Below are positions 2,524-41,440 of a DNA stretch of 41,440 bases, in pieces (within the stretch, counting starts at the first letter, position 1; every line of letters begins with the position of its first letter). The stretch is from positions 1-41,440 of the IMG/VR virus record IMGVR_UViG_3300002461_000793; one strand, given 5' to 3'. The notes below the pieces were generated by a model, which searched no databases, was not told where the DNA came from, and was given only the letters and a program-made list of their open reading frames with translations. The stretch is from a virus. Position numbers and translations under genes: made by a program.

Positions 2524-3339
2524 TCAGTACTTGCGGGGCTTCTTCTTGGCCGGCATCGAGTGGACAGTCCGCTTGCCCTTCACCTTCTTGTCTCCTTCTT
2601 CCGGCTCGGGGTAGGCGAACATGATGTTGGCCAGTGCTTCTTCACGCCGGTCCATGACGATCTGCATCACCTCGTCGGGGACGTTCTCCAGCGGCTCGAA
2701 CAGAACGATGAACTGGTTGTTGGGATCCGCCTGTACTTTGATCTTGGTGATCAGACCATGGGGCGGACGCTTCAGGGTGGCAGCACTGGTCTTGACGTAC
2801 CCACCGTAGGCTCGGATGGAAGTGGGCGGGATCTTCAGGTAGCCGATGCCGGCCGACTTCCAGTGCTCCAGGTCCTCGTACAGATCCAGCTTGCCGTTCT
2901 TGAACACGCCGGCGGGAATGAGGGCCAGTCGGCGGCCATTGCGGCAAGCCTTGCCCTTGCCACGCTCGGCGGTGCCGAACTCGTTGTGCTCGCACCCCTT
3001 ACAGATGTCGCTCTGAGCGTTGCCGGCCTGCACCACTTGGTCGAACGGCTTGAGCTCCTTCTCTTCGTGGGCGTACGCGTAGCACGTCGGCGCCGACGGG
3101 TTCTGCGGGTCGTACTCTTCCTGATAGTACACGTTCTCGAAGATGGCATCCAGGATCACGACGGCCATCTGGTTGTCAGGCATGGGCGAGTCATTCCAAG
3201 ACAGGATGCCTCCCTTGGTGCTGAACATCTGACCACCGCCGGAGTTCACCTCGATGGCTGCCGCGGCTTCGGCTTGACGGGCGAGTTCCTCGTCCCACTT
3301 GACGAGGGCGGTGCTCTTGCTGGGTTTCTTTGCTGCCAT
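2524..3339 (-). CDS. Hypothetical replication-module protein (271 aa); possibly ssDNA-binding
   Basis: The ORF 2524..3741 was trimmed to ATG 3339, preceded by AAGGAGAG. It has a lysine-rich basic N-terminus and C-terminus and a cysteine pair CKGCEHNEF...KACRNG. The functional guess rests only on position next to the polymerase. Confidence 0.6.
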   Translation of the reverse strand: MAAKKPSKSTALVKWDEELARQAEAAAAIEVNSGGGQMFSTKGGILSWNDSPMPDNQMAVVILDAIFENVYYQEEYDPQNPSAPTCYAYAHEEKELKPFDQVVQAGNAQSDICKGCEHNEFGTAERGKGKACRNGRRLALIPAGVFKNGKLDLYEDLEHWKSAGIGYLKIPPTSIRAYGGYVKTSAATLKRPPHGLITKIKVQADPNNQFIVLFEPLENVPDEVMQIVMDRREEALANIMFAYPEPEEGDKKVKGKRTVHSMPAKKKPRKY

Positions 3340-3341
3340 TT

Positions 3342-3596
3342 CTACTCTCCTTGGTTGACGCGGGTGTTGACATCTCTCCAGCTGTACACGACAGGGTGCC
3401 AGCCAGCCTTGATTTGCTTGCGACGACGCTCGGCTTCTCTGAAGCTGGAGACCTTCATCTCCTTCTTCTTGGCATTCGCGATGTACAGCTTCGACAGCGG
3501 ATCGCGTTCGCCTCTGTTGGGAACCAAAGCCGTTGCCGCCAGCATACCAGCCAGCACGGCAACAAGATTCGTGATGTTTTTTCCACGACCAAACAT
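3342..3596 (-). CDS. Small membrane protein (84 aa)
   Basis: ATG with TAGGAGAA upstream. One hydrophobic segment LVAVLAGMLAATALV followed by a basic tail. Confidence 0.55.
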   Translation of the reverse strand: MFGRGKNITNLVAVLAGMLAATALVPNRGERDPLSKLYIANAKKKEMKVSSFREAERRRKQIKAGWHPVVYSWRDVNTRVNQGE

Positions 3597-3605
3597 GGTG
3601 TTCTC

Positions 3606-3866
3606 CTAGAACGTAGTGGGTTGAGCGATGCCCCGCATCACGGCCATGAAGCCCTTCTGCAGGTCCGTCGCGCCGATGCTGATCCAGCGCTGGTCGAGCG
3701 CGATGCCCGGGTCTGACATGATGCTGGGGTTCAACTGACAACCCCGCAGCTTTTCAATGTACGCACCGACCAGTTCGGCAAGTGCCTTACCCTCGTTCAT
3801 CAGCTCGACTTCCTTCTCGCTGAGCTGGCGATAGCCGGTGATCTTTGGCTGCTGAAACGTTTCCAT
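3606..3866 (-). CDS. Small helical protein (86 aa); candidate Acb2/Vs.4-like cyclic-oligonucleotide sponge
   Basis: CTAGGAGAG lies upstream of the ATG. The sequence GYRQLSEKEVELMNEGK...DQRWISIGATDLQKGFMAVMRGIAQP matches my recollection of the Acb2/Vs.4 family layout. This is memory based, not searched. Confidence 0.6.
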   Translation of the reverse strand: METFQQPKITGYRQLSEKEVELMNEGKALAELVGAYIEKLRGCQLNPSIMSDPGIALDQRWISIGATDLQKGFMAVMRGIAQPTTF

Positions 3867-7689: not shown

Positions 7690-7860
7690 TCAATACGGCG
7701 GGAAAGCGCTTCCGGTGAAGTAGTCGCGGAGGTTCGCCTTGTCGATAACCATCAGCACGAGCACCGCCCAGAATTGCCAGTCGTTGTACCTAATACCGGC
7801 CGTGTACAGCACGAACGCCATCGCGGCGTAGATGGCAAGCCCTACGATAGTGTTGACCAT
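7690..7860 (-). CDS. Small membrane protein (56 aa, below the ORF-track cutoff)
   Basis: My translation: MVNTIVGLAIYAAMAFVLYTAGIRYNDWQFWAVLVLMVIDKANLRDYFTGSAFPPY. GGGAGGGAGC lies immediately upstream of the ATG. Confidence 0.5.
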   Translation of the reverse strand: MVNTIVGLAIYAAMAFVLYTAGIRYNDWQFWAVLVLMVIDKANLRDYFTGSAFPPY

Positions 7861-8195
7861 GCTCCCTCCCTTTTCTCAGACTCCCACTCCAAAAGGATGG
7901 CGGCTCCAGCATACACCATAGCCCCCAGCACCTCGTTGACAAACTCCGTTCCGACCTTGGTGGACGCCGCTTCCTCCAGCTTCTTGGCGGCCTGGCCAGT
8001 GAGAAACCCGCGGCCGTGAAGCTTGCCATAGTGGTGCCACGGCTGCTCCATGAAGGGGACGGTGTTGCCTCCGTGCCTCTGCCCCTTGCCGTACATAGCC
8101 TGGTTGATGGCGGCCATGAAGACAGGATACAGCGGGTGGGACGTCATGGCTTCTGTGGCGCCGTTGACGTCTTCAATCTCTTGACTCTTCTGCAT
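7842..8195 (-). CDS. Hypothetical protein (117 aa)
   Basis: Trimmed to ATG 8195, which has GGAGG 6 nt upstream. The motif YGKGQRHGG...FLTGQAAKKLEEA recalls helical phage nucleotide-hydrolase-like proteins. I cannot assign it. Confidence 0.6.
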   Translation of the reverse strand: MQKSQEIEDVNGATEAMTSHPLYPVFMAAINQAMYGKGQRHGGNTVPFMEQPWHHYGKLHGRGFLTGQAAKKLEEAASTKVGTEFVNEVLGAMVYAGAAILLEWESEKREGAWSTLS

Positions 8196-8838
8196 AGAGC
8201 ACCTCCAAAAGAACAGGGTAAGTAGCGAGCAAGACATCTCGGCATTTCTCCGCGATTTCGCGATGCTCCTTCTGCGTACCTGGCTCGCACCGCAGTTGAA
8301 CGTAGTGGATCCAACTCCGCACGGATCCGGCCATGTACATCCTGGAAGGCGTCATGCCCTCAGGCAGAACTGCTCTGGCCACCTCCTTGGCGACCCCAAG
8401 CTCAAGGGCCTGGTTGTAGATGGAGCTGGCGAACGCGGCAACGTCGCGCTGCTTGCGTGTCCACCAGTTGCCCAGCGCTTCGTCGTCATTCTCCAGTGAC
8501 CCCTGTCGGTTCTTGGTGTCTTGTAGCCTTGCCTCCCTCACTTGGTAGGTGTCGGCCACCTTCGAGTAGCGCTGGCTGAACTCCTGAAAGCTGAAGGACC
8601 GGTGGCGAAGGATCTGTCGGGCGATGTCTCTGGTCGTCTCGATGTACATCACCATGTGAGCCATCTCGAACGGCGACCAGTGGTTGTTGCGTGACATGTA
8701 CCCCAGCAACCTTTCTGCCGTGCCGTGGTTGTCCTGGTTCTCGGGGTTGGACACGCGAGCCACGAACGCAATGAACTCGAGTGGGAGCATGTCCGTGGTG
8801 GGGGTAGTCAAGGCCACCAGCTCGACGACCGGCTTCAC
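8173..8838 (-). CDS. thyX: Flavin-dependent thymidylate synthase ThyX
   Basis: ThyX signature RHRSFSFQEFSQRYS (RHRxxSxxxxSxR). Confidence 0.95.
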   Translation of the reverse strand: MKPVVELVALTTPTTDMLPLEFIAFVARVSNPENQDNHGTAERLLGYMSRNNHWSPFEMAHMVMYIETTRDIARQILRHRSFSFQEFSQRYSKVADTYQVREARLQDTKNRQGSLENDDEALGNWWTRKQRDVAAFASSIYNQALELGVAKEVARAVLPEGMTPSRMYMAGSVRSWIHYVQLRCEPGTQKEHREIAEKCRDVLLATYPVLLEVLYAEESRD

Positions 8839-9057: not shown

Positions 9058-9516
9058 TCATCCCCTCCTGCTGGCAAGTTCGTTGGCGATCTGGATCTCG
9101 TCCACCACGGCCCAATCCTCGCTGAGGATATCGGTCTGGCTGGCCAGCCATGGCACCTTGGCGCCGTTGGGGTAGGCCGGATGGTAGAGCGGGTAGACCA
9201 TGTAGATGTAGGGCAGCGTCATGTCTGACTTCGAGTCCGGCTCGCGAAGCCGCAGCCACATGTACTTGCCGTTCCACCCGGACCTTGCCACGGAACGCCC
9301 TGTCTTCAAGGCCTCCAGCGCCAGACCAAAGGTCATCTGGTCGATGGGCATGTAGGTCTCCTCAAAAAGGTCGCCCGGTAACCACGCCTCGTGTCCGTCA
9401 CCGTAGAGAACGCGGTACCCAGGAGTGGCGGTGTCGTTGCTCCCACCCTTGGTGAAGCGAATTTCGCGGTAGGCTGAGACCACCTTGATCCCGATGTACC
9501 TCTTCAACTCAGACAT
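9058..9516 (-). CDS. Two-domain protein: N4 gp49/Sf6 gp66-like N-terminus plus DUF2829 (Tad2-like) C-terminus
   Basis: N-terminal YIGIKVVSAY...GYRVLYGDGHEAWLPGDLFEETY. C-terminal MTFGLALEALKTGRSVARSGWNGKYMWL...PYIYM...VPWLASQTDILSEDWAVV, the classic DUF2829 pattern. Confidence 0.8.
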   Translation of the reverse strand: MSELKRYIGIKVVSAYREIRFTKGGSNDTATPGYRVLYGDGHEAWLPGDLFEETYMPIDQMTFGLALEALKTGRSVARSGWNGKYMWLRLREPDSKSDMTLPYIYMVYPLYHPAYPNGAKVPWLASQTDILSEDWAVVDEIQIANELASRRG

Positions 9517-33364: not shown

Positions 33365-33729
33365 GCCCACTGATTCGAGCCCAGCACAAATTCCTCATCG
33401 ACGTCAGCAAACTCATCATCTGGGCCAACACCAGAGACTGGGTTCTGACCGGAGGAGAGTTGTTCAGAACCGTGGAGCAGCAGCGGATCCACGTCAAGGC
33501 CGGCAGATCCAGAACCATGAACAGTCAGCACGGCATGAGGCTGGCCATTGACTTCAACATCTTTGTTGACGGTCAGCTCTGCTACGACAAGAAAGTGCTG
33601 GCACCGATGGGGGCGTTCTGGGAGAGCATGGATCCACTGAACTCTTGGGGAGGTAATGGGATCAAGCTCGTCGACACCCCTCACTTCTCAAGGGGCATCG
33701 ACAAGCCTGAGTTTCGCAGGGTCACCTAG
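33361..33729 (+). CDS. Endolysin, peptidase M15 (VanY/L-Ala-D-Glu peptidase-like)
   Basis: Trimmed to ATG 33361. Zinc ligands in SQHGMRLAIDF and VDTPHF. Confidence 0.8.
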   Translation: MSPLIRAQHKFLIDVSKLIIWANTRDWVLTGGELFRTVEQQRIHVKAGRSRTMNSQHGMRLAIDFNIFVDGQLCYDKKVLAPMGAFWESMDPLNSWGGNGIKLVDTPHFSRGIDKPEFRRVT

Positions 33730-34184
33730 TCAGGATACTTCTGCCAGAACCGGCCTGCGGTCTGCCACAACTCTCTTGCCGGGTGCGGGTACTCCTCCTT
33801 GAAGATGATGTAGTGGCAGGAGGTGTTCAGGAGAAGCTTCGTGCAGGTCATGCAGGGCGACGTGGTAACGTAGCACGCGGTAATCTGAGAGACATCCCTG
33901 CATTGCAGGAGCGCGTTCTGCTCAGCATGGATCGCCTGGCACATGTCAAGGTTGGTGCCGCTTGGAGATTGAGCTCCTGGACAAGCCCACCGATAATGGT
34001 CGTCGATGACTCCAGGTTCGTTGCAGTGCGCTAGACCAGCGGCCACGCCGTTGTACCCGGTCGACAGGATGTGCCCCTTCTCGTTGATCAGAACCGCCCC
34101 CACCTGACGCCTGAGGCATGTGGACCTCAAAGCGCAGATTTCGGCGATCCTCATCGCCCAGTCGTTGATGTGTATCCTGCTCAT
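33726..34184 (-). CDS. dCMP deaminase
   Basis: HAEQNAL and PCMTCTKLL zinc motifs. ATG 34184 forms an ATGA overlap with the ThyA-like stop. Confidence 0.9.
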   Translation of the reverse strand: MSRIHINDWAMRIAEICALRSTCLRRQVGAVLINEKGHILSTGYNGVAAGLAHCNEPGVIDDHYRWACPGAQSPSGTNLDMCQAIHAEQNALLQCRDVSQITACYVTTSPCMTCTKLLLNTSCHYIIFKEEYPHPARELWQTAGRFWQKYPD

Positions 34185-34975
34185 GCCAGGCTCCACCAGC
34201 GGAGACTGACAGACCCGTCCTTGATCTCTCTGAGGGTCTTGAAAAGCTCGTGCTCGCTCTCCCAGAGAACGTCAGGGGTTTGCGGGTAGCCTTCACCGAT
34301 GGCCTTGTTGTGGTATTCGACGCATCTTCCAGCATCCACCTTGTTGGGCTCGTACAGGTGGCTGTTGGCCATGGTCAGGTAGAGACTACCAGGCTCCACG
34401 GTTTGATCAAACCGGGAATCGTGGTTCAGCCTGCAGCAGACCAGATGCGCCAGCATGCTGAAGTTGAACACATCGTACGGAAAACCCAGCCACGCGTCTG
34501 ACGACCGCATGAACACATGTGCGTTCAGGTAGTTGTCTCTGACAGAGAAGAAGATGCTCACCGTGCACGGAACATCCTTTGTCTCAGGCGGGTTCTCTCG
34601 CCAGATGTTGATGCCGGCCTGACGCGAGTAGGGATCAGCGCAAAGCTTGCTGATAACATAATCCAGCTGCCCAACGATCTTGGGCCCGTACGCGCCGAAG
34701 AAGGTCTGGCCGTCGTCGGAGAAGTTGGCCATCCGACTGTTGTACGGCGCGATTGTCTCCACTCGATCATCACCAGTGAGGATCCAATGCGCCTCGGCCG
34801 CCATGAACCTGTAGTTCAGGCTCCTCAGCTGGTTGACTACCACCGGGTACCGCATGTTCATGACTACGGTATGGTGAAGAAGCTCCGTGCACGAAAAGCC
34901 CCTGGGGCGGGATGGAAGCCCCATCATCAGGATGGTGTTGAGAAGGTTTGCCCACACGTTGTTTGCTGTTCTCAT
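34181..34975 (-). CDS. ThyA-superfamily pyrimidine C5 transferase; predicted dCMP hydroxymethylase-like
   Basis: DVPCTVSIFFSVRDNYLNAHVFMRSSDAWLGFPYDVFNF aligns with T4 gp42 FMCTNTVQYLIRDKKINAVVNMRSNDVVFGFRNDYAW. Both have Cys-Thr, and both have Asp at the position that is Asn177 in ThyA. Confidence 0.8.
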   Translation of the reverse strand: MRTANNVWANLLNTILMMGLPSRPRGFSCTELLHHTVVMNMRYPVVVNQLRSLNYRFMAAEAHWILTGDDRVETIAPYNSRMANFSDDGQTFFGAYGPKIVGQLDYVISKLCADPYSRQAGINIWRENPPETKDVPCTVSIFFSVRDNYLNAHVFMRSSDAWLGFPYDVFNFSMLAHLVCCRLNHDSRFDQTVEPGSLYLTMANSHLYEPNKVDAGRCVEYHNKAIGEGYPQTPDVLWESEHELFKTLREIKDGSVSLRWWSLA

Positions 34976-34984
34976 GATTCTCTC

Positions 34985-35881
34985 CTAGATCATAGATATC
35001 AGTCTGTAAGGCCTGTCGAAGTGGAATCTCTTCCACGCCTGCGGGTGCGGCACCAGATCATGCTTGACCATCCTCTCAGTCAGCCTAGAGGAGGCGACAC
35101 GGCCCAGAGCGATGATGCGTCGAGTGCTGCCGTCGCCCAGCATCGACAGATCTTGATCCGAGTTCACCCAGAGAAGATCTTGCTCCTTCACGTTGGCAGA
35201 GGCCAGTTGCCTGGTGAGCCACCTGCTGCAACCAGCGTCGCCAAACGAGGCAAACGGCCACTGGTAGAAGGTGTCGTTGTCCTTGTGGTGTGCAAACTCG
35301 TCACCTACAAGAACCACGTTGGCCGCCAGGTTGCCAGCCGACCTGGTATGAAGAGGATGGCACGACCAGGATACCGCCGACAGTAGGTCTCCGTCCAACT
35401 CGCCTGTCTCGTAATCGTACAGCATCGTGGGAAGTTCTGACTTCACCTCGGCGTTGTAGATGTCGTAGACCTTAGACAGCTGAATGTCGTCATCCAGCAT
35501 CTCAGTGGCTCGCCTTGCCATGAAGTTGGCAATGCACACCTCCTTGTCAGGCAGGCACAACACCACCGAGGCCCCGCATCTCATGGCCAACCTCTCCAAC
35601 ATCCTGACGTCTGCCGGATCCAGCCTGTTGGCGCCACCACGGAACACGCGGCCGTAGGGAATCTCCGACAACCAGCATCGGTCAAGGACCACGTCCTGAT
35701 AGCCCATGAGAGCAGGCAGCATGGCCTCTACGTACATCCTGGCCAGCCCGAACGTAACACGCGGCATGGCTGGGAAGTGCACGTAGAGGGCGTTGTGCTT
35801 TACCCTCAGCTGATGGGCCAGTGTGGTCTTGCCAGCTCCATCAGGTCCTTCCACGATGTAGACTCTCTTGCAGGTCTCCAT
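34985..35881 (-). CDS. dNMP (thymidylate-like) kinase fused to a UDG-superfamily domain
   Basis: P-loop EGPDGAGKTTLA and DR motif VVLDRCWLSEIPYG. The C-terminal part, VVLVGDEFAHH..WPF..GDAGCSRWL..LLWVN..RIIALGRVA..VPHPQAW, follows family 4 UDG motif order (GEAPG..PF..G.AG..L..N..LG..HPS). Confidence 0.8.
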   Translation of the reverse strand: METCKRVYIVEGPDGAGKTTLAHQLRVKHNALYVHFPAMPRVTFGLARMYVEAMLPALMGYQDVVLDRCWLSEIPYGRVFRGGANRLDPADVRMLERLAMRCGASVVLCLPDKEVCIANFMARRATEMLDDDIQLSKVYDIYNAEVKSELPTMLYDYETGELDGDLLSAVSWSCHPLHTRSAGNLAANVVLVGDEFAHHKDNDTFYQWPFASFGDAGCSRWLTRQLASANVKEQDLLWVNSDQDLSMLGDGSTRRIIALGRVASSRLTERMVKHDLVPHPQAWKRFHFDRPYRLISMI

Positions 35882-35883
35882 GG

Positions 35884-36282
35884 CTACTCTCCAAGGATCT
35901 GGCGGATCTTGTGCTCAGGAGGAACGAAGCCCGGAGGCTTGACCACGTCAAACGAGGAACCTCGCTTCGAGGCATCGGCACTGGGCGTTCGCATCTTGCT
36001 CATGTTGGCGTTGTGCACCGCTGCAAACGCCTCATTCCACTGACCTGGGAAGACCCCCATGAAGAGAGCCGTCCCCATGGCGACGTAGGTCAGGTCAATG
36101 AGGGCATCGAGGGCCTTCACCTTGTCTCCAGCTTCGCAGGCTTCCTTGAACTCGGCCAGCTCCTCTTCGAGGAACCCAGTCCTGTACTTAAGAACCTCAG
36201 GATCGGAGAACAGAAGGTTGTCGTGGCCCAGAGGAAGGCAGAAAACCAAGTGAAACTCGTACACCTTGTCCATCTCAGTCAT
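35884..36282 (-). CDS. All-alpha MazG/HisE-like NTP pyrophosphohydrolase
   Basis: FLEEELAEFKEA...ALDALIDLTYVAMG...VHNANMSK (EExxE...D metal motif). ATG 36282 forms an ATGA overlap with the methyltransferase stop. Confidence 0.8.
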   Translation of the reverse strand: MTEMDKVYEFHLVFCLPLGHDNLLFSDPEVLKYRTGFLEEELAEFKEACEAGDKVKALDALIDLTYVAMGTALFMGVFPGQWNEAFAAVHNANMSKMRTPSADASKRGSSFDVVKPPGFVPPEHKIRQILGE

Positions 36283-37040
36283 TTCAGTCTCCTGCAAACC
36301 CAGAGATTGTTCCTGGAGTGGTCGGGGTACAACGGAGCGAAGATGCAGCTGATCGCGTCGTTGTCATAGTACTTGGCCAGTCGGTCCTTCACGGCTTTGA
36401 TGGCGGTCTCAATCTCCAAGTTATCATAGACCTTTCCAATGTGCTTGATGTCCATGAAGGTGCCGTGCCGCTGCTCCACCGTAAGCCCAGCCTTGAGCAC
36501 CGCCTTGTACAACTCATCCACCGTGTACTCGTGGATGTGGTTGGCGGCGTGGCGCTTGCCGTCGTAGCACGGGGTGGACATGAGCATGATACCACCAGGC
36601 TTCAGGCAGTTGAAGCAGGCCTTTAGCAACTTGGCACCGTGTTCCACCTTCATGTGCTCGATGACTTCATAGTGGACCACCACGTCGAAGCCCTTGGCGT
36701 TGTCTCCAGTCAGAAGATTCTTCCAGTTCTCGACGAAGTTGAACTCACCGTGGAACGTCAGGCGCTGGCTGTTGGAGGGCTTCAGCTTATTCAGATCCAC
36801 CCCGGTGTAGTGGCCAACGTGCGGAGCAGCGCCACCGGTCAGGATCTTGCTGAGAGGCCTGTCTTCGCCGCAGCCGATCTCCAGGACATTGTCCTTGGCG
36901 GTGATGAACCGGCGGGCGAAGCTCCAGCGGAAGAAATGGGCGGAGTAGTCCCGGTGCAGGGTACGCCCATGACCTGCCTCCCTCAGTTGAGTGGTGTCGT
37001 ATTCGCGAACGTCGCGTTGAACCTCACGTGTCTTTGGCAT
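36279..37040 (-). CDS. Class I SAM-dependent methyltransferase fold (small-molecule/O-MTase-like, not a classical DNA MTase)
   Basis: Motif I VLEIGCGEDRP preceded by HRDYSAHFFRWSFARRF. Post-motif GGIMLMSTP. No DPPY/NPPY or PCQ/ENV motifs. Confidence 0.85.
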   Translation of the reverse strand: MPKTREVQRDVREYDTTQLREAGHGRTLHRDYSAHFFRWSFARRFITAKDNVLEIGCGEDRPLSKILTGGAAPHVGHYTGVDLNKLKPSNSQRLTFHGEFNFVENWKNLLTGDNAKGFDVVVHYEVIEHMKVEHGAKLLKACFNCLKPGGIMLMSTPCYDGKRHAANHIHEYTVDELYKAVLKAGLTVEQRHGTFMDIKHIGKVYDNLEIETAIKAVKDRLAKYYDNDAISCIFAPLYPDHSRNNLWVCRRLK

Positions 37041-37677: not shown

Positions 37678-37898
37678 TCTGACTCTCCCGATAGTTGGTC
37701 GGCGATGACAGACAGGTCCAACAGGCCCTGCATCAAGGCCTTACCGTGGTCCGGCCAGTAGGTAGGCCCGTAGATCTGCCAGTTGATTTCAACCAAACCG
37801 CCCTTCTTGGTAACTCGGCCCTTGGGCTCACCATCCACTAGTAGCTGAAAGATGGCGACCCCATCGCGGCTAAGATCCTCAATCTGGATCTCAGCCAT
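37671..37898 (-). CDS. Hypothetical protein (75 aa)
   Basis: The ATG overlaps the upstream gene end by 8 nt. Same-strand coupling. Confidence 0.5.
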   Translation of the reverse strand: MAEIQIEDLSRDGVAIFQLLVDGEPKGRVTKKGGLVEINWQIYGPTYWPDHGKALMQGLLDLSVIADQLSGESEW

Positions 37899-38358
37899 TG
37901 GCCGACCCCTGGCGCTTCAGGAAGCCGCGGTACCAGGCGGGGTAGCCGCGCTTCTTGTTGTCCTGAAGGTTGAACTTCTCCTTGATGTGCTCCCAGATCT
38001 CCTTGTTGGTCTTGCCGGCAAGGATCATGGACTTGCAGATCTCGCCGATGCCTTCGCACGAGCGCACGGTCTTGTTCCGGGGACGGTCGTAGTTGCGGCC
38101 ACCGCCGGCGGACTTCTTCTCTTGCGCTTGGCCAGCCAGCGTGAGCAAGTCGTCGAAGGTGCCGACCACCTTCTTGGTAGCAGGCGCTTGGAGAGAGGCC
38201 AGGTGGGCCTCGGCGCGCGCGACTTGGCACGCGAAGGTACCATCAGTCAGCTTCTCGATAAAGAAGTTGTAGTCACGGGGCTTGATCCCGATCTTGCGCA
38301 GCACGGAGGTGGCAGAGTCGCGGGACTTGAAGATACGGACGGCGTCAGCAGATTTCAT
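37891..38358 (-). CDS. Basic protein sharing a C-terminal domain with the 37054..37677 protein (155 aa)
   Basis: Trimmed to ATG 38358 (GCTGAGGGT upstream). C-terminus: ICKSMILAGKTNKEIWEHIKEKFNLQDNKKRGYPAWYRGFLKRQG. Confidence 0.65.
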   Translation of the reverse strand: MKSADAVRIFKSRDSATSVLRKIGIKPRDYNFFIEKLTDGTFACQVARAEAHLASLQAPATKKVVGTFDDLLTLAGQAQEKKSAGGGRNYDRPRNKTVRSCEGIGEICKSMILAGKTNKEIWEHIKEKFNLQDNKKRGYPAWYRGFLKRQGSANG

Positions 38359-38394
38359 TTGGTTACCCTCAGCAAGGTAGTTGATTACGGGGTC

Positions 38395-38440
38395 ATTGTA
38401 GTGTGCAATGATCCCGTCGTACACAGTTACGCAACAACAT
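38395..38440 (-). promoter_or_regulatory. Conserved promoter-like element D
   Basis: Minus strand: GCGTAACTGTGTACGAC-N-TACAAT. TGTACG (38423..38418), a 17-nt spacer and TACAAT (38400..38395). It shares TAACTGTGTAC with element A. Confidence 0.55.
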
Positions 38441-41030: not shown

Positions 41031-41440
41031 TCAGTATTTGCACTGGCCGCCGCCGGCAGCCTTGTTGGACGCCCGGTAGAAACACCACTGGCACTTCGTG
41101 TTTGGCGTCGGCTTGAACGAAGTGTCCTTCATCATCTTACGAACCCGAAGATCCCACGTCTTCTTGAGGCGGACCAAGTCTTCTCTGGTGTAGGAGAAGT
41201 AGCCGCGCAGCGGATGCACAACGCCGTAGTCGACGTAGACGAGTCTGGTCCGAACCTCCTTGATGTGCGAGTACAGAAGCAGGGCCGCCAAGGCGTACAA
41301 CTCCAACTGCTCCTCGTAGTCGGACACCATGTCATCCCTGTACTTGCCAGTCTTCCAGTCGGACACCAGCAGCACGTCGTCCTCAACATGATGGGCGCAG
41401 TCGATCTTGATCCGCACCCAGCAGTTGACCCAATCATCCC
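41031..41440 (-). CDS. PD-(D/E)XK Cas4/RecB-like exonuclease, C-terminal part (the last 94 nt duplicate nt 1-94)
   Basis: IDC...VSDWKTGK (D...DxK), QLELYALA (QxxxY), and C-terminal cysteines CQWC...C. Together with Cys18 in the N-terminal part these give a Cas4-type four-Cys pattern. Confidence 0.8.
   Translation of the reverse strand, partial: DDWVNCWVRIKIDCAHHVEDDVLLVSDWKTGKYRDDMVSDYEEQLELYALAALLLYSHIKEVRTRLVYVDYGVVHPLRGYFSYTREDLVRLKKTWDLRVRKMMKDTSFKPTPNTKCQWCFYRASNKAAGGGQCKY
41347..41440. repeat. Second copy of the terminal duplication (identical to nt 1-94)
   Basis: Direct reading, as for the first copy. Confidence 0.95.

Follow-up and report, generated by a model that had tools for sequence, protein, structure and literature searches.

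A viral genome of 41,440 nucleotides (IMG/VR record IMGVR_UViG_3300002461_000793, positions 1-41,440; this whole stretch of DNA is called the window below) carries on its minus strand an operon that we interpret as a pathway for replacing cytosine in phage DNA. In order of transcription, its five genes encode an S-adenosylmethionine (SAM)-dependent methyltransferase (MTase), a nucleoside triphosphate (NTP) pyrophosphatase, a deoxynucleoside monophosphate (dNMP) kinase fused to a domain resembling uracil-DNA glycosylase (UDG), a homolog of the thymidylate synthase ThyA and a deoxycytidine monophosphate (dCMP) deaminase (Table 1). Taken as a whole, the operon is probably a pre-replicative cytosine-replacement pathway of the T-even type in a virulent P22-like podovirus, tailoring by the MTase included. 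A large group of phages, most of them uncultured, shares the operon. Confidence differs among the parts of this reading. A core pathway leading to 5-hydroxymethylcytosine (5hmC) is very likely; on whether the MTase acts on the hydroxymethylcytosine moiety at all we are nearly undecided, leaning slightly against; and the specific product, an O-methylated hydroxymethyl group giving 5-methoxymethylcytosine, is put forward tentatively. The conserved MTase, at the position where relatives carry base-decorating enzymes, suggests an undescribed methylated derivative of 5hmC.

The nature of the base depends first on the ThyA homolog. In a profile search of the PDB, its closest solved structure was the CMP 5-hydroxymethylase MilA (2.9e-16), with all thymidylate synthases weaker (5e-11 or worse), which sets it apart from the ordinary dUMP-specific thymidylate synthases. 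We aligned the window protein with Escherichia coli ThyA, T4 gp42, the ThyA of phage PaMx28 and homologs from 47 related loci, numbering the specificity residues as in E. coli ThyA. The residues of the ThyA fold are kept (catalytic C146, R166, Y94, H207 and Y209), and at every published specificity position (C146, D143, T147, M165, D169 and D177) the window protein is identical to T4 gp42, as the sequence-only reading of this DNA that preceded our analysis had claimed. The same pattern was found in 46 of the 47 loci and in gp36 of phage Xp15. Substitution of N177 by Asp shifts the substrate from dUMP to dCMP (PMC8670742; PMC13326640), and the window and all 47 loci have D177. Substitution of L143 by Asp or Glu accompanies a hydroxymethyl or hydroxyl product instead of a methyl one, the acidic residue admitting water (PMC13326640); in the window D143 lies within DVPC, as in T4 gp42 and MilA. 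With residues identical to those of gp42, the homolog is predicted to convert dCMP to 5hm-dCMP, and not to dTMP, 5m-dCMP or 5ho-dCMP. The flavin-dependent thymidylate synthase ThyX, encoded elsewhere in the genome, is the proposed source of dTMP, leaving the ThyA homolog free for cytosine chemistry.

The second line of evidence concerns the MTase. This gene, METHYLTRANSFERASE, is the most conserved of the module, with a median identity to the window of 72% across loci; the corresponding medians are 60% (polymerase), 56% (helicase), 53% (ThyA homolog) and 50% (kinase fusion), and in 107 of 114 loci the MTase is closer to its window counterpart than the ThyA homolog is. At least 825 homologs, about 75% identical, are in protein databases, and a gp42-type ThyA homolog follows the MTase in every MTase-seeded locus with enough downstream sequence. 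The families of DNA MTases (DNA_methylase, N6_N4_Mtase) were absent from the Pfam matches of the protein, which lay instead in related small-molecule MTase families. When the family profile was searched against the PDB, the C-terminal domain of bacterial Hen1 was the best match (5.7e-5), followed by UbiG and phosphoethanolamine MTases. In Hen1, a metal ion holds the ribose hydroxyls for O-methylation. Its Mn/Mg ligands, which we take to be the E-x-x-E-H … H set, have counterparts in the window protein: E125, E128 and H129 (EVIEH) together with H168 align on the metal ligands of CthHen1 with the 48-residue spacing expected, and none of the four varies among 39 MTase homologs. The protein is a single 253-aa domain without the N-terminal domain of the Hen1 family proper, and there was no Pnkp partner among the annotated genes; therefore, we did not file it as Hen1. 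The tetrad of Hen1-type ligands leads us to read it as a putative metal-dependent O-methyltransferase with a small or nucleotide-like substrate. An AlphaFold2 (AF2) model gave a class-I Rossmann fold (pLDDT 77.6), in which the N-terminal ~32 residues are predicted to be disordered, yet are rich in invariant Arg, Asp and His. The conservation of the MTase, the highest in the module, and its complete set of four Hen1 metal ligands lead us to propose O-methylation of 5hmC.

Comparison of gene order among relatives gives this proposal its context. The five-gene cassette was found in the same order in Stenotrophomonas phage AXL3 (gp31-gp27), in Pseudoxanthomonas phage PW916 and in a Manatee Spring siphovirus, and it is present in more than 100 viral contigs (45 IMG/VR contigs when the search was seeded with the kinase fusion and 80 when it was seeded with the MTase, in partly shared sets). 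A scan of 185,579 species genomes for the MTase returned eight contigs of metagenome-assembled genomes (MAGs), seven of which are phage-sized and binned to unrelated phyla; these are therefore taken as binned contigs of virulent phages, not prophages, and support no inference about hosts. Across loci, the all-alpha NTP pyrophosphatase, the gp42-type ThyA homolog and, usually, the deaminase form a constant core, while the position just upstream of the pyrophosphatase, which we call the tailoring slot, varies, being occupied by the SAM MTase in most loci. In Xp15 (NC_007024, 29563-33499; locus L139) the slot holds a carbamoyltransferase (PF02543 and PF16861). The order there, from gp39 to gp35, is carbamoyltransferase, PRA-PH, small kinase, ThyA homolog with the gp42 signature and deaminase, and ThyX is encoded as well. 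Carbamoyltransferases in this neighbourhood convert 5hmC to 5-carbamoyloxymethylcytosine, acting on both 5hm-dCTP and DNA (PMC8670742). Judging from its genes, the cultured phage Xp15 is predicted to contain this base, so far shown with a metagenomic enzyme only.

Two other loci extend the variability of the slot. One encodes there a protein with the helical domain of 5-hmdU-DNA kinase (HMUDK_hel, PF18723, 1.1e-43; L036, 5792-6625), the other a pyridoxal phosphate (PLP)-dependent enzyme, below the Pfam threshold, together with two proteins of unknown function (L031, 3069-6120); these slot genes may underlie yet other cytosine hypermodifications. None of the three alternatives (carbamoyltransferase, HMUDK-helical protein and PLP enzyme), each seen in one locus, co-occurs with the SAM MTase. 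A homolog of C5-cytosine DNA MTases lies beside the SAM MTase in twelve locus records and was identified in five contigs, the one in L023 matching PF00145. The variable slot lends support to the suggestion, made in the sequence-only reading, that virion DNA carries an undescribed derivative of 5hmC.

Published restriction data on AXL3 bear on the chemistry of the base. Of 37 restriction enzymes, 35 failed to cut AXL3 DNA, the two that did being TasI (AATT) and Tru1I (TTAA); the authors suspected modified G/C, read the genes as a thymidylate pathway and left the modification unidentified (PMC7504290). DNA of T4gt, which contains plain 5hmC, blocks nearly the whole AXL3 panel, including AhdI, KpnI, EcoRI, ClaI, BglII and HaeIII, so the phenotype fits 5hmC or a bulkier base and does not discriminate between them. 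XbaI alone cuts T4gt DNA, partially, and AXL3 DNA was not cut by XbaI. A further association comes from contigs that survived an experimental selection for modified cytosine. In the portion of the MetaGPA results considered here, the Pfam families most enriched in them were Thymidylat_synt, dCMP_cyt_deam_1, DNA ligase domains, PRA-PH, DNA_pol_A and Thy1; DUF932 was enriched too, and the families listed in that portion correspond to the early-gene repertoire of the window.

The main competing explanation, which we consider unlikely but worth serious attention, is that the DNA contains plain 5hmC and that the MTase is unrelated to DNA, being a Hen1-like RNA 2'-O-MTase or an enzyme with a host or small-molecule target, linked to the cassette by descent. 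Indeed, as T4gt demonstrates, the restriction phenotype of AXL3 needs no derivative of 5hmC, and true RNA 2'-O-MTases are among the closest sequence relatives of the MTase. One locus (L026) has the core genes with an empty slot. In addition, the MTase has a 43%-identical homolog in an unrelated context, on a 635-kb MAG contig (CAVSAZ010000011.1; L138, 4863-6701), where it makes up the N-terminal portion of a 612-aa protein encoded next to an integrase and a D5_N primase; it is the only occurrence found outside the phage cassette. This explanation, however, leaves aside the linkage of the MTase to a hydroxymethylase in every MTase-seeded locus, and the slots of sister lineages, which hold proven or probable tailoring enzymes for hydroxymethylpyrimidines, none of them found together with the MTase. 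The overlap between the MTase stop and the start of the following gene also speaks against it, as do the missing Hen1 N-terminal domain and Pnkp partner. The failure of XbaI to cut AXL3 DNA points the same way, as weak evidence.

The reading that includes tailoring by the MTase has several points against it besides the restriction data. The similarity to Hen1 amounts to only 26 bits, and the fold search of the MTase was non-discriminating, since Foldseek returned generic class-I relatives (mRNA cap N7-MTase, CmoM, FPP MTases and phosphoethanolamine MTases) at TM 0.5-0.58. The alternatives in the slot number three, from a single locus each, and a methylase-type ThyA was seen once. Adjacency within a syntenic replication module can reflect common descent instead of function. 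About one third of the MTase-bearing cassettes are without the kinase, so that the phosphorylation step is not universal. The MTase could target N4 or N3 of cytosine, RNA or a host molecule. In the literature searched, we found no report of 5-methoxymethylcytosine in nature and no MTase of this kind in a 5hmC context, and what speaks for the pathway is sequence and comparative evidence only.

The remaining alternatives concern the core. It is very improbable that the ThyA homolog is a dCMP methyltransferase of the XP12 type, which would give DNA with 5-methylcytosine (5mC) and a deaminase converting 5m-dCTP to dTTP. Three observations lend it some credit: the backbone order of PolA, helicase, pyrophosphatase, ThyA and deaminase is common to the 5mC Pamexvirus PaMx28, a deaminase encoded in cis with a ThyA homolog can be selective for 5mC (bioRxiv 2024.12.05.627091), and N177D alone occurs in dCMP methylases too. 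However, the window protein has Asp at position 143, as T4 gp42 does, and not a bulky hydrophobic residue, and its T147 and M165 are also those of gp42, whereas PaMx28 ThyA has N143/P147/I165/D177 and the methylase-like ThyA of locus L045 (IMGVR_UViG_3300049569_000086, 7860-8750) has W80/L143/H147/D177. This locus, the single one with a methylase-type ThyA resembling the 5mC type, carries the kinase fusion, the pyrophosphatase and the deaminase and has no SAM MTase (n=1). All 5mC-making Pamexviruses encode dihydrofolate reductase (DHFR) (PMC9206674), of which the complete genome of the window has no homolog. The presence of ThyX and the absence of DHFR fit the folate cycle, as neither a hydroxymethylating ThyA homolog nor ThyX yields dihydrofolate, and ThyX makes the bypass from 5m-dCTP to dTTP unnecessary. 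Finally, the 5mC DNA of XP12 is completely cut by KpnI and AhdI (PMC7653180), and that of the 5mC-type phage AXL1 by KpnI and by Eam1105I, an isoschizomer of AhdI (PMC9206674). AXL3 DNA resisted KpnI and Eam1105I and is therefore not plain 5mC.

Less probable again is that the ThyA homolog belongs with the RB69-type flavin-dependent 5-hydroxy-dCMP synthases, the base being 5-hydroxycytosine or 5-methoxycytosine. Such enzymes do carry N177D and an acidic residue 143 (PMC13326640), and an O-methyltransferase could act on the 5-OH; however, their mark is the substitution of D169 by Asn (PMC13326640 section 28), and Asp169 (RSSD) is kept in the window and in all 47 loci, in a genome with no recognisable glycosyltransferase or NDP-sugar genes. 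Least probable of all is ordinary salvage from dCMP through dUMP and dTMP to dTDP with a redundant ThyA and canonical DNA, as in the AXL3 and PW916 papers, which the database names thymidylate synthase, thymidylate kinase and dCMP deaminase invite and which is at odds with Asp177, a residue disfavouring dUMP (PMC8670742), with ThyX as an existing supply of dTMP and with the resistance of AXL3 DNA to restriction at all G/C sites. These three readings, and that of thymidine hypermodification, were rejected on active-site residues and gene content, leaving the hydroxymethylation of dCMP as the preferred reaction of the core.

Table 1. The cassette, the adjoining upstream gene and ThyX in the window, with the evidence for each.
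Feature	Coordinates	Strand	Evidence
Conserved upstream gene, 207 aa	37054-37677	-	Lys/Ala/Pro-rich linker and portable ~45-aa C-terminal motif
Class-I SAM-dependent MTase, 253 aa	36279-37040	-	Methyltransf_23 1.6e-15; small-molecule/nucleotide type; Hen1-like metal tetrad
All-alpha MazG/HisE-type NTP pyrophosphohydrolase, 132 aa	35884-36282	-	PRA-PH 8.9e-13; phrog_671 'nucleotide pyrophosphohydrolase' 9e-27
P-loop dNMP/dN-kinase domain of the fusion (residues 1 to ~165)	35387-35881	-	phrog_761 'thymidylate kinase' 1.4e-18 (residues 7-148)
C-terminal domain of the fusion (residues ~175-298 and stop codon)	34985-35359	-	Sub-threshold matches to a family-4/UdgX-like UDG fold
Predicted dCMP hydroxymethylase of the ThyA family, 264 aa	34181-34975	-	PF00303 Thymidylat_synt 4.2e-19; gp42-type active site
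dCMP deaminase, 152 aa	33726-34184	-	PF00383 dCMP_cyt_deam_1 2.9e-16; phrog_174 1e-30; HAE…PCxxC zinc site
ThyX flavin-dependent thymidylate synthase	8173-8838	-	PF02511 1.2e-40; phrog_85 3.5e-68

All five open reading frames (ORFs) are present on the minus strand at the coordinates from which the sequence-only reading had started, and the family assignments it had made for the MTase fold of non-DNA type, the pyrophosphatase, the kinase, the ThyA homolog and the deaminase were borne out by profile searches (Table 1). The same is true of its larger claim that the operon follows T-even logic, which is mirrored gene for gene by a pyrophosphatase, a hydroxymethylase, a kinase, a deaminase and a separate thymidylate synthase. 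Translational coupling can be read from the sequence at two junctions: an ATGA at 36279-36282 is common to the MTase stop and the pyrophosphatase start, and another at 34181-34184 to the ThyA-homolog stop and the deaminase start. The gaps are 2 nucleotides (nt) between the pyrophosphatase and the kinase fusion and 9 nt between the fusion and the ThyA homolog, and a GGAG-type ribosome-binding site lies 5-8 nt before each of the five start codons. The longest mechanical ORFs open at TTG 36297 and GTG 34196; we preferred the ATG starts because the positions of the ribosome-binding sites support them.

The boundary of the operon had to be moved. A conserved gene stops 13 nt before the MTase ATG, which is itself preceded by AGGAGG; a consensus scan found no terminator inside the unit, and the promoter signal was not above that of shuffled sequence. 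With this short gap and without an interrupting terminator or a convincing promoter, the transcription unit is longer than five genes. A homolog of the upstream gene lies upstream of the MTase in nearly all related loci, and it is a possible member of the pathway. Its product and that of 37891-38424 (minus strand) share a ~45-aa C-terminal motif (…AGKLTDDQIFxxVxxxFxLxDxKKxYVxWYRNxLKKxG…) behind Lys/Ala/Pro-rich linkers. The motif was also found in gp56 of PaMx28 (L050) and at the C-terminus of the C5-DNA-methyltransferase homologs beside the SAM MTase (L023/L024/L032), and it may be a tether to DNA or to the replisome. At the other end of the unit, a CTAG palindrome (33726-33729) is common to the stop codons of the minus-strand deaminase and of the plus-strand endolysin, so that the early and late transcription units converge there with zero spacer; no terminator was detected in the consensus scan.

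The pyrophosphatase matches PRA-PH above the curated Pfam threshold and is 42% identical to the pyrophosphohydrolase of the 5mC phage PaMx28; in some relatives, a dimeric-dUTPase-type all-alpha enzyme (PF08761 8e-10) stands in for it. From its context, it is proposed to be a dCTPase, an analogue of T4 gp56. The deaminase scored 59.6 bits against PF00383 (cut-off 25), its zinc motifs CQAIHAEQNA and SPCMTC are readable in the translation, and it is 50% identical to the deaminase of Xp15; it is proposed to supply dUMP to ThyX.

The protein between the pyrophosphatase and the ThyA homolog (34985-35881) had been read as a fusion of a dNMP kinase with a UDG fold. The kinase half stood: its profile matched SPbeta YorR in the PDB (6.9e-6), the top Foldseek matches of the fusion were thymidylate kinases, YorR and deoxynucleoside kinases (4e-7), and the Walker A motif (GPDGAGKT) and the DR motif are invariant (G12, G15, G17, K18, D67 and R68). 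The Pfam match to Thymidylate_kin was below threshold (21.8 vs 27 bits). The AF2 model of the whole protein was confident (pLDDT 91.6, pTM 0.90). By analogy with T4 gp1, this domain is proposed to be a 5hm-dCMP kinase.

The UDG half found weaker support. Pfam matched UDG in 2 of 20 members of the fusion family (best E 0.01, sub-threshold), NCBIfam Arch_udg, UdgX and UDG_fam4 gave sub-threshold matches (best E 0.0034), and with a diverse profile about 26 of 38 weak PDB matches were type-4 UDG or UdgX (E ~0.3); a profile built from the family alone gave no relevant PDB match for the domain. The weak alignments are in register at motif A, at the PF motif, at the Asn of strand 2 and at the LG..A strand, and the order of secondary-structure elements in the AF2 model is compatible with UDG. 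The Foldseek lists for the fusion (PDB and BFVD) were filled by matches to the kinase domain. The four Cys of the family-4 Fe-S cluster are absent from the domain, which has one invariant Cys only (C218). Overall, these matches weakly support a divergent fold of the family-4/UdgX-like UDG type.

The C-terminal domain occurs in 1,246 representative proteins, almost all of which are ~300 aa long and end with it; a HMMER search with it returned only the fusion family among the best 150 matches, and at least 759 full-length homologs of the fusion are in protein databases. Kinase-only versions exist (L048, L052 and Xp15 gp37); therefore, the domain is dispensable in evolution. The 'DNA polymerase subunit' of Xp15, followed as a lead to a UDG, proved to be such a kinase-only homolog. 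The cassettes without the kinase carry a protein of ~140 aa (…RGGHPGALA…DIINYAGFF) with a faint match to DUF1599/Nmad1 (E 0.046), located between the pyrophosphatase and the ThyA homolog (L060, 7133-7564, and 25 other locus records) and mutually exclusive with the kinase fusion. We propose that the UDG-like domain is an accessory module binding pyrimidines or DNA: its possible tasks are binding of the modified pyrimidine nucleotide, tethering of the kinase to DNA, and excision of pyrimidines that are unmodified or deaminated. Handling modified or policing unmodified pyrimidines in this way would be a new use of the base-flipping fold.

As a separate observation, gp315 of the jumbo Bacillus phage G (JN638751) is a full-length structural match to the kinase fusion (Foldseek 9e-13), and gp319, a ThyA homolog a few genes from gp315, is 35% identical to that of the window.

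The genome around the cassette is complete. The sequence has a 94-bp exact direct terminal repeat (1-94 and 41347-41440), from which we conclude that the contig is a whole genome (~41.3 kb) with no genes hidden beyond its ends and that the minus-strand early region is continuous across the ends of the window. As the sequence-only reading had recognised, the virion module is of the P22 type (portal, major capsid protein, gp10-like closure protein, and gp7- and gp20-like ejection proteins), ThyX is present and no glycosyltransferase is found among the identifiable genes; in the whole genome, we detected no homolog of T4 beta-GT or of the T4-type glucosyltransferases. Replication genes encode a family-A DNA polymerase and separate exonuclease, a helicase, a primase and an ATP-dependent ligase, and further early proteins contain DUF932, PD-(D/E)XK and VRR-NUC domains. 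A 405-aa early ORF adjoining the DNA polymerase (2524-3741, minus strand) matches only PHROGs of unknown function, with no match in Pfam or the PDB, and is the one sizeable early gene in which a modification enzyme could still hide. A megablast of the region against 50,697 phage records gave a single 87-bp match, which indicates that there is no close sequenced relative. We also observed a Tad2-like Thoeris anti-defence domain (PF11195, 5.4e-21) in a 152-aa protein (9058-9516, minus strand), so that DNA modification is combined with a dedicated anti-Thoeris factor in one phage.

Gene identities, active-site residues, synteny, the variability of the slot and the restriction resistance of AXL3 are established; from them we infer each enzymatic step, above all that of the MTase. 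In the proposed pathway, the pyrophosphatase would hydrolyse dCTP, and probably dCDP and dUTP too, to the monophosphate, keeping ordinary cytosine out of DNA, and the ThyA homolog would hydroxymethylate dCMP to 5hm-dCMP. The P-loop kinase domain, or a host kinase where it is missing, would then phosphorylate 5hm-dCMP, a host NDP kinase would complete the triphosphate, and the family-A polymerase of the phage would incorporate 5hm-dCTP, while the deaminase would divert part of the dCMP to dUMP for ThyX. The SAM MTase with its Hen1-like metal site would O-methylate the 5-CH2OH group, on the nucleotide or on DNA, to yield 5-methoxymethylcytosine.

If this scheme is correct, the cassette marks a family of phages, large and widespread in the environment, whose cytosine is fully substituted; in public data, the MTase forms more than 800 clusters (90% identity), and representative proteins with the UDG-like fusion number more than 1,200. 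AXL3, PW916 and their relatives would replace all cytosine with 5-methoxymethylcytosine, a base undescribed in nature, and SAM-dependent methylation of the hydroxymethyl group would extend both the list of natural DNA bases and that of enzyme activities. Such an enzyme could be of practical value for 5hmC-selective derivatisation in epigenetic sequencing and for nuclease-resistant DNA, and the modification would explain how phage-therapy candidates such as AXL3 evade restriction. A conserved core with a swappable slot would also be a simple genomic rule for finding further cytosine hypermodifications. AXL3 and PW916 are cultured, which makes the prediction directly testable.

The core is already known, as the T-even pathway and as the ThyA/deaminase/PRA-PH neighbourhoods of modified-cytosine phages in the MetaGPA studies; in the literature searched there is no description of a SAM MTase as slot enzyme, of the fusion of kinase and UDG-like domain or of the chemical identity of the AXL3-type base. 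The roles correspond one to one to those of T4 gp56 dCTPase, gp42, gp1 dNMP kinase, the Cd deaminase and Td, and the ThyA homolog shares all specificity residues with gp42. The proteins, however, are not orthologous: the ThyA homolog has 264 aa where gp42 has 246 and is closer to MilA than to gp42 in the PDB search, the kinase resembles TMPK and YorR and carries a fused UDG-like domain, the thymidylate synthase is ThyX instead of Td, and a SAM MTase takes the place of glucosyltransferases, all in a 41-kb genome with a podovirus virion.

The carbamoyltransferase system of Xp15 and MetaGPA is alike in gene order, in the presence of ThyX and in its 50%-identical deaminase, and differs in its tailoring enzyme, which uses ATP and carbamoyl phosphate instead of SAM, and in a kinase without the extra UDG-like domain. 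With XP12 and the Pamexviruses the window has in common the backbone of the replication module, the pyrophosphohydrolase and a homolog of the small conserved upstream protein, whereas PaMx28 has N143/P147/I165 in place of D/T/M in its ThyA, encodes DHFR, and is without the SAM MTase, the kinase fusion and an annotated ThyX in the region; the AXL3-type restriction profile is unlike those of XP12 and AXL1. Systems for thymidine hypermodification reportedly use 5-hmdU DNA kinase, aGPT-type enzymes and PLP enzymes. They are similar in that a ThyA homolog makes a hydroxymethylpyrimidine that is then tailored, and the HMUDK-helical protein and the PLP enzyme seen in two slots recall them; the base predicted here is cytosine (D177), not uracil, and the window is without those tailoring enzymes. 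Also close are AXL3 and PW916, with the same five genes in the same order (identity to the window: MTase 75%, ThyA homolog 52%, fusion 43-44%), and with ThyX also encoded in AXL3. They differ from the window in being siphoviruses of Xanthomonadaceae with unrelated virion modules, and in them the cassette was annotated as a thymidylate pathway (PMC7504290, PMC9414467).

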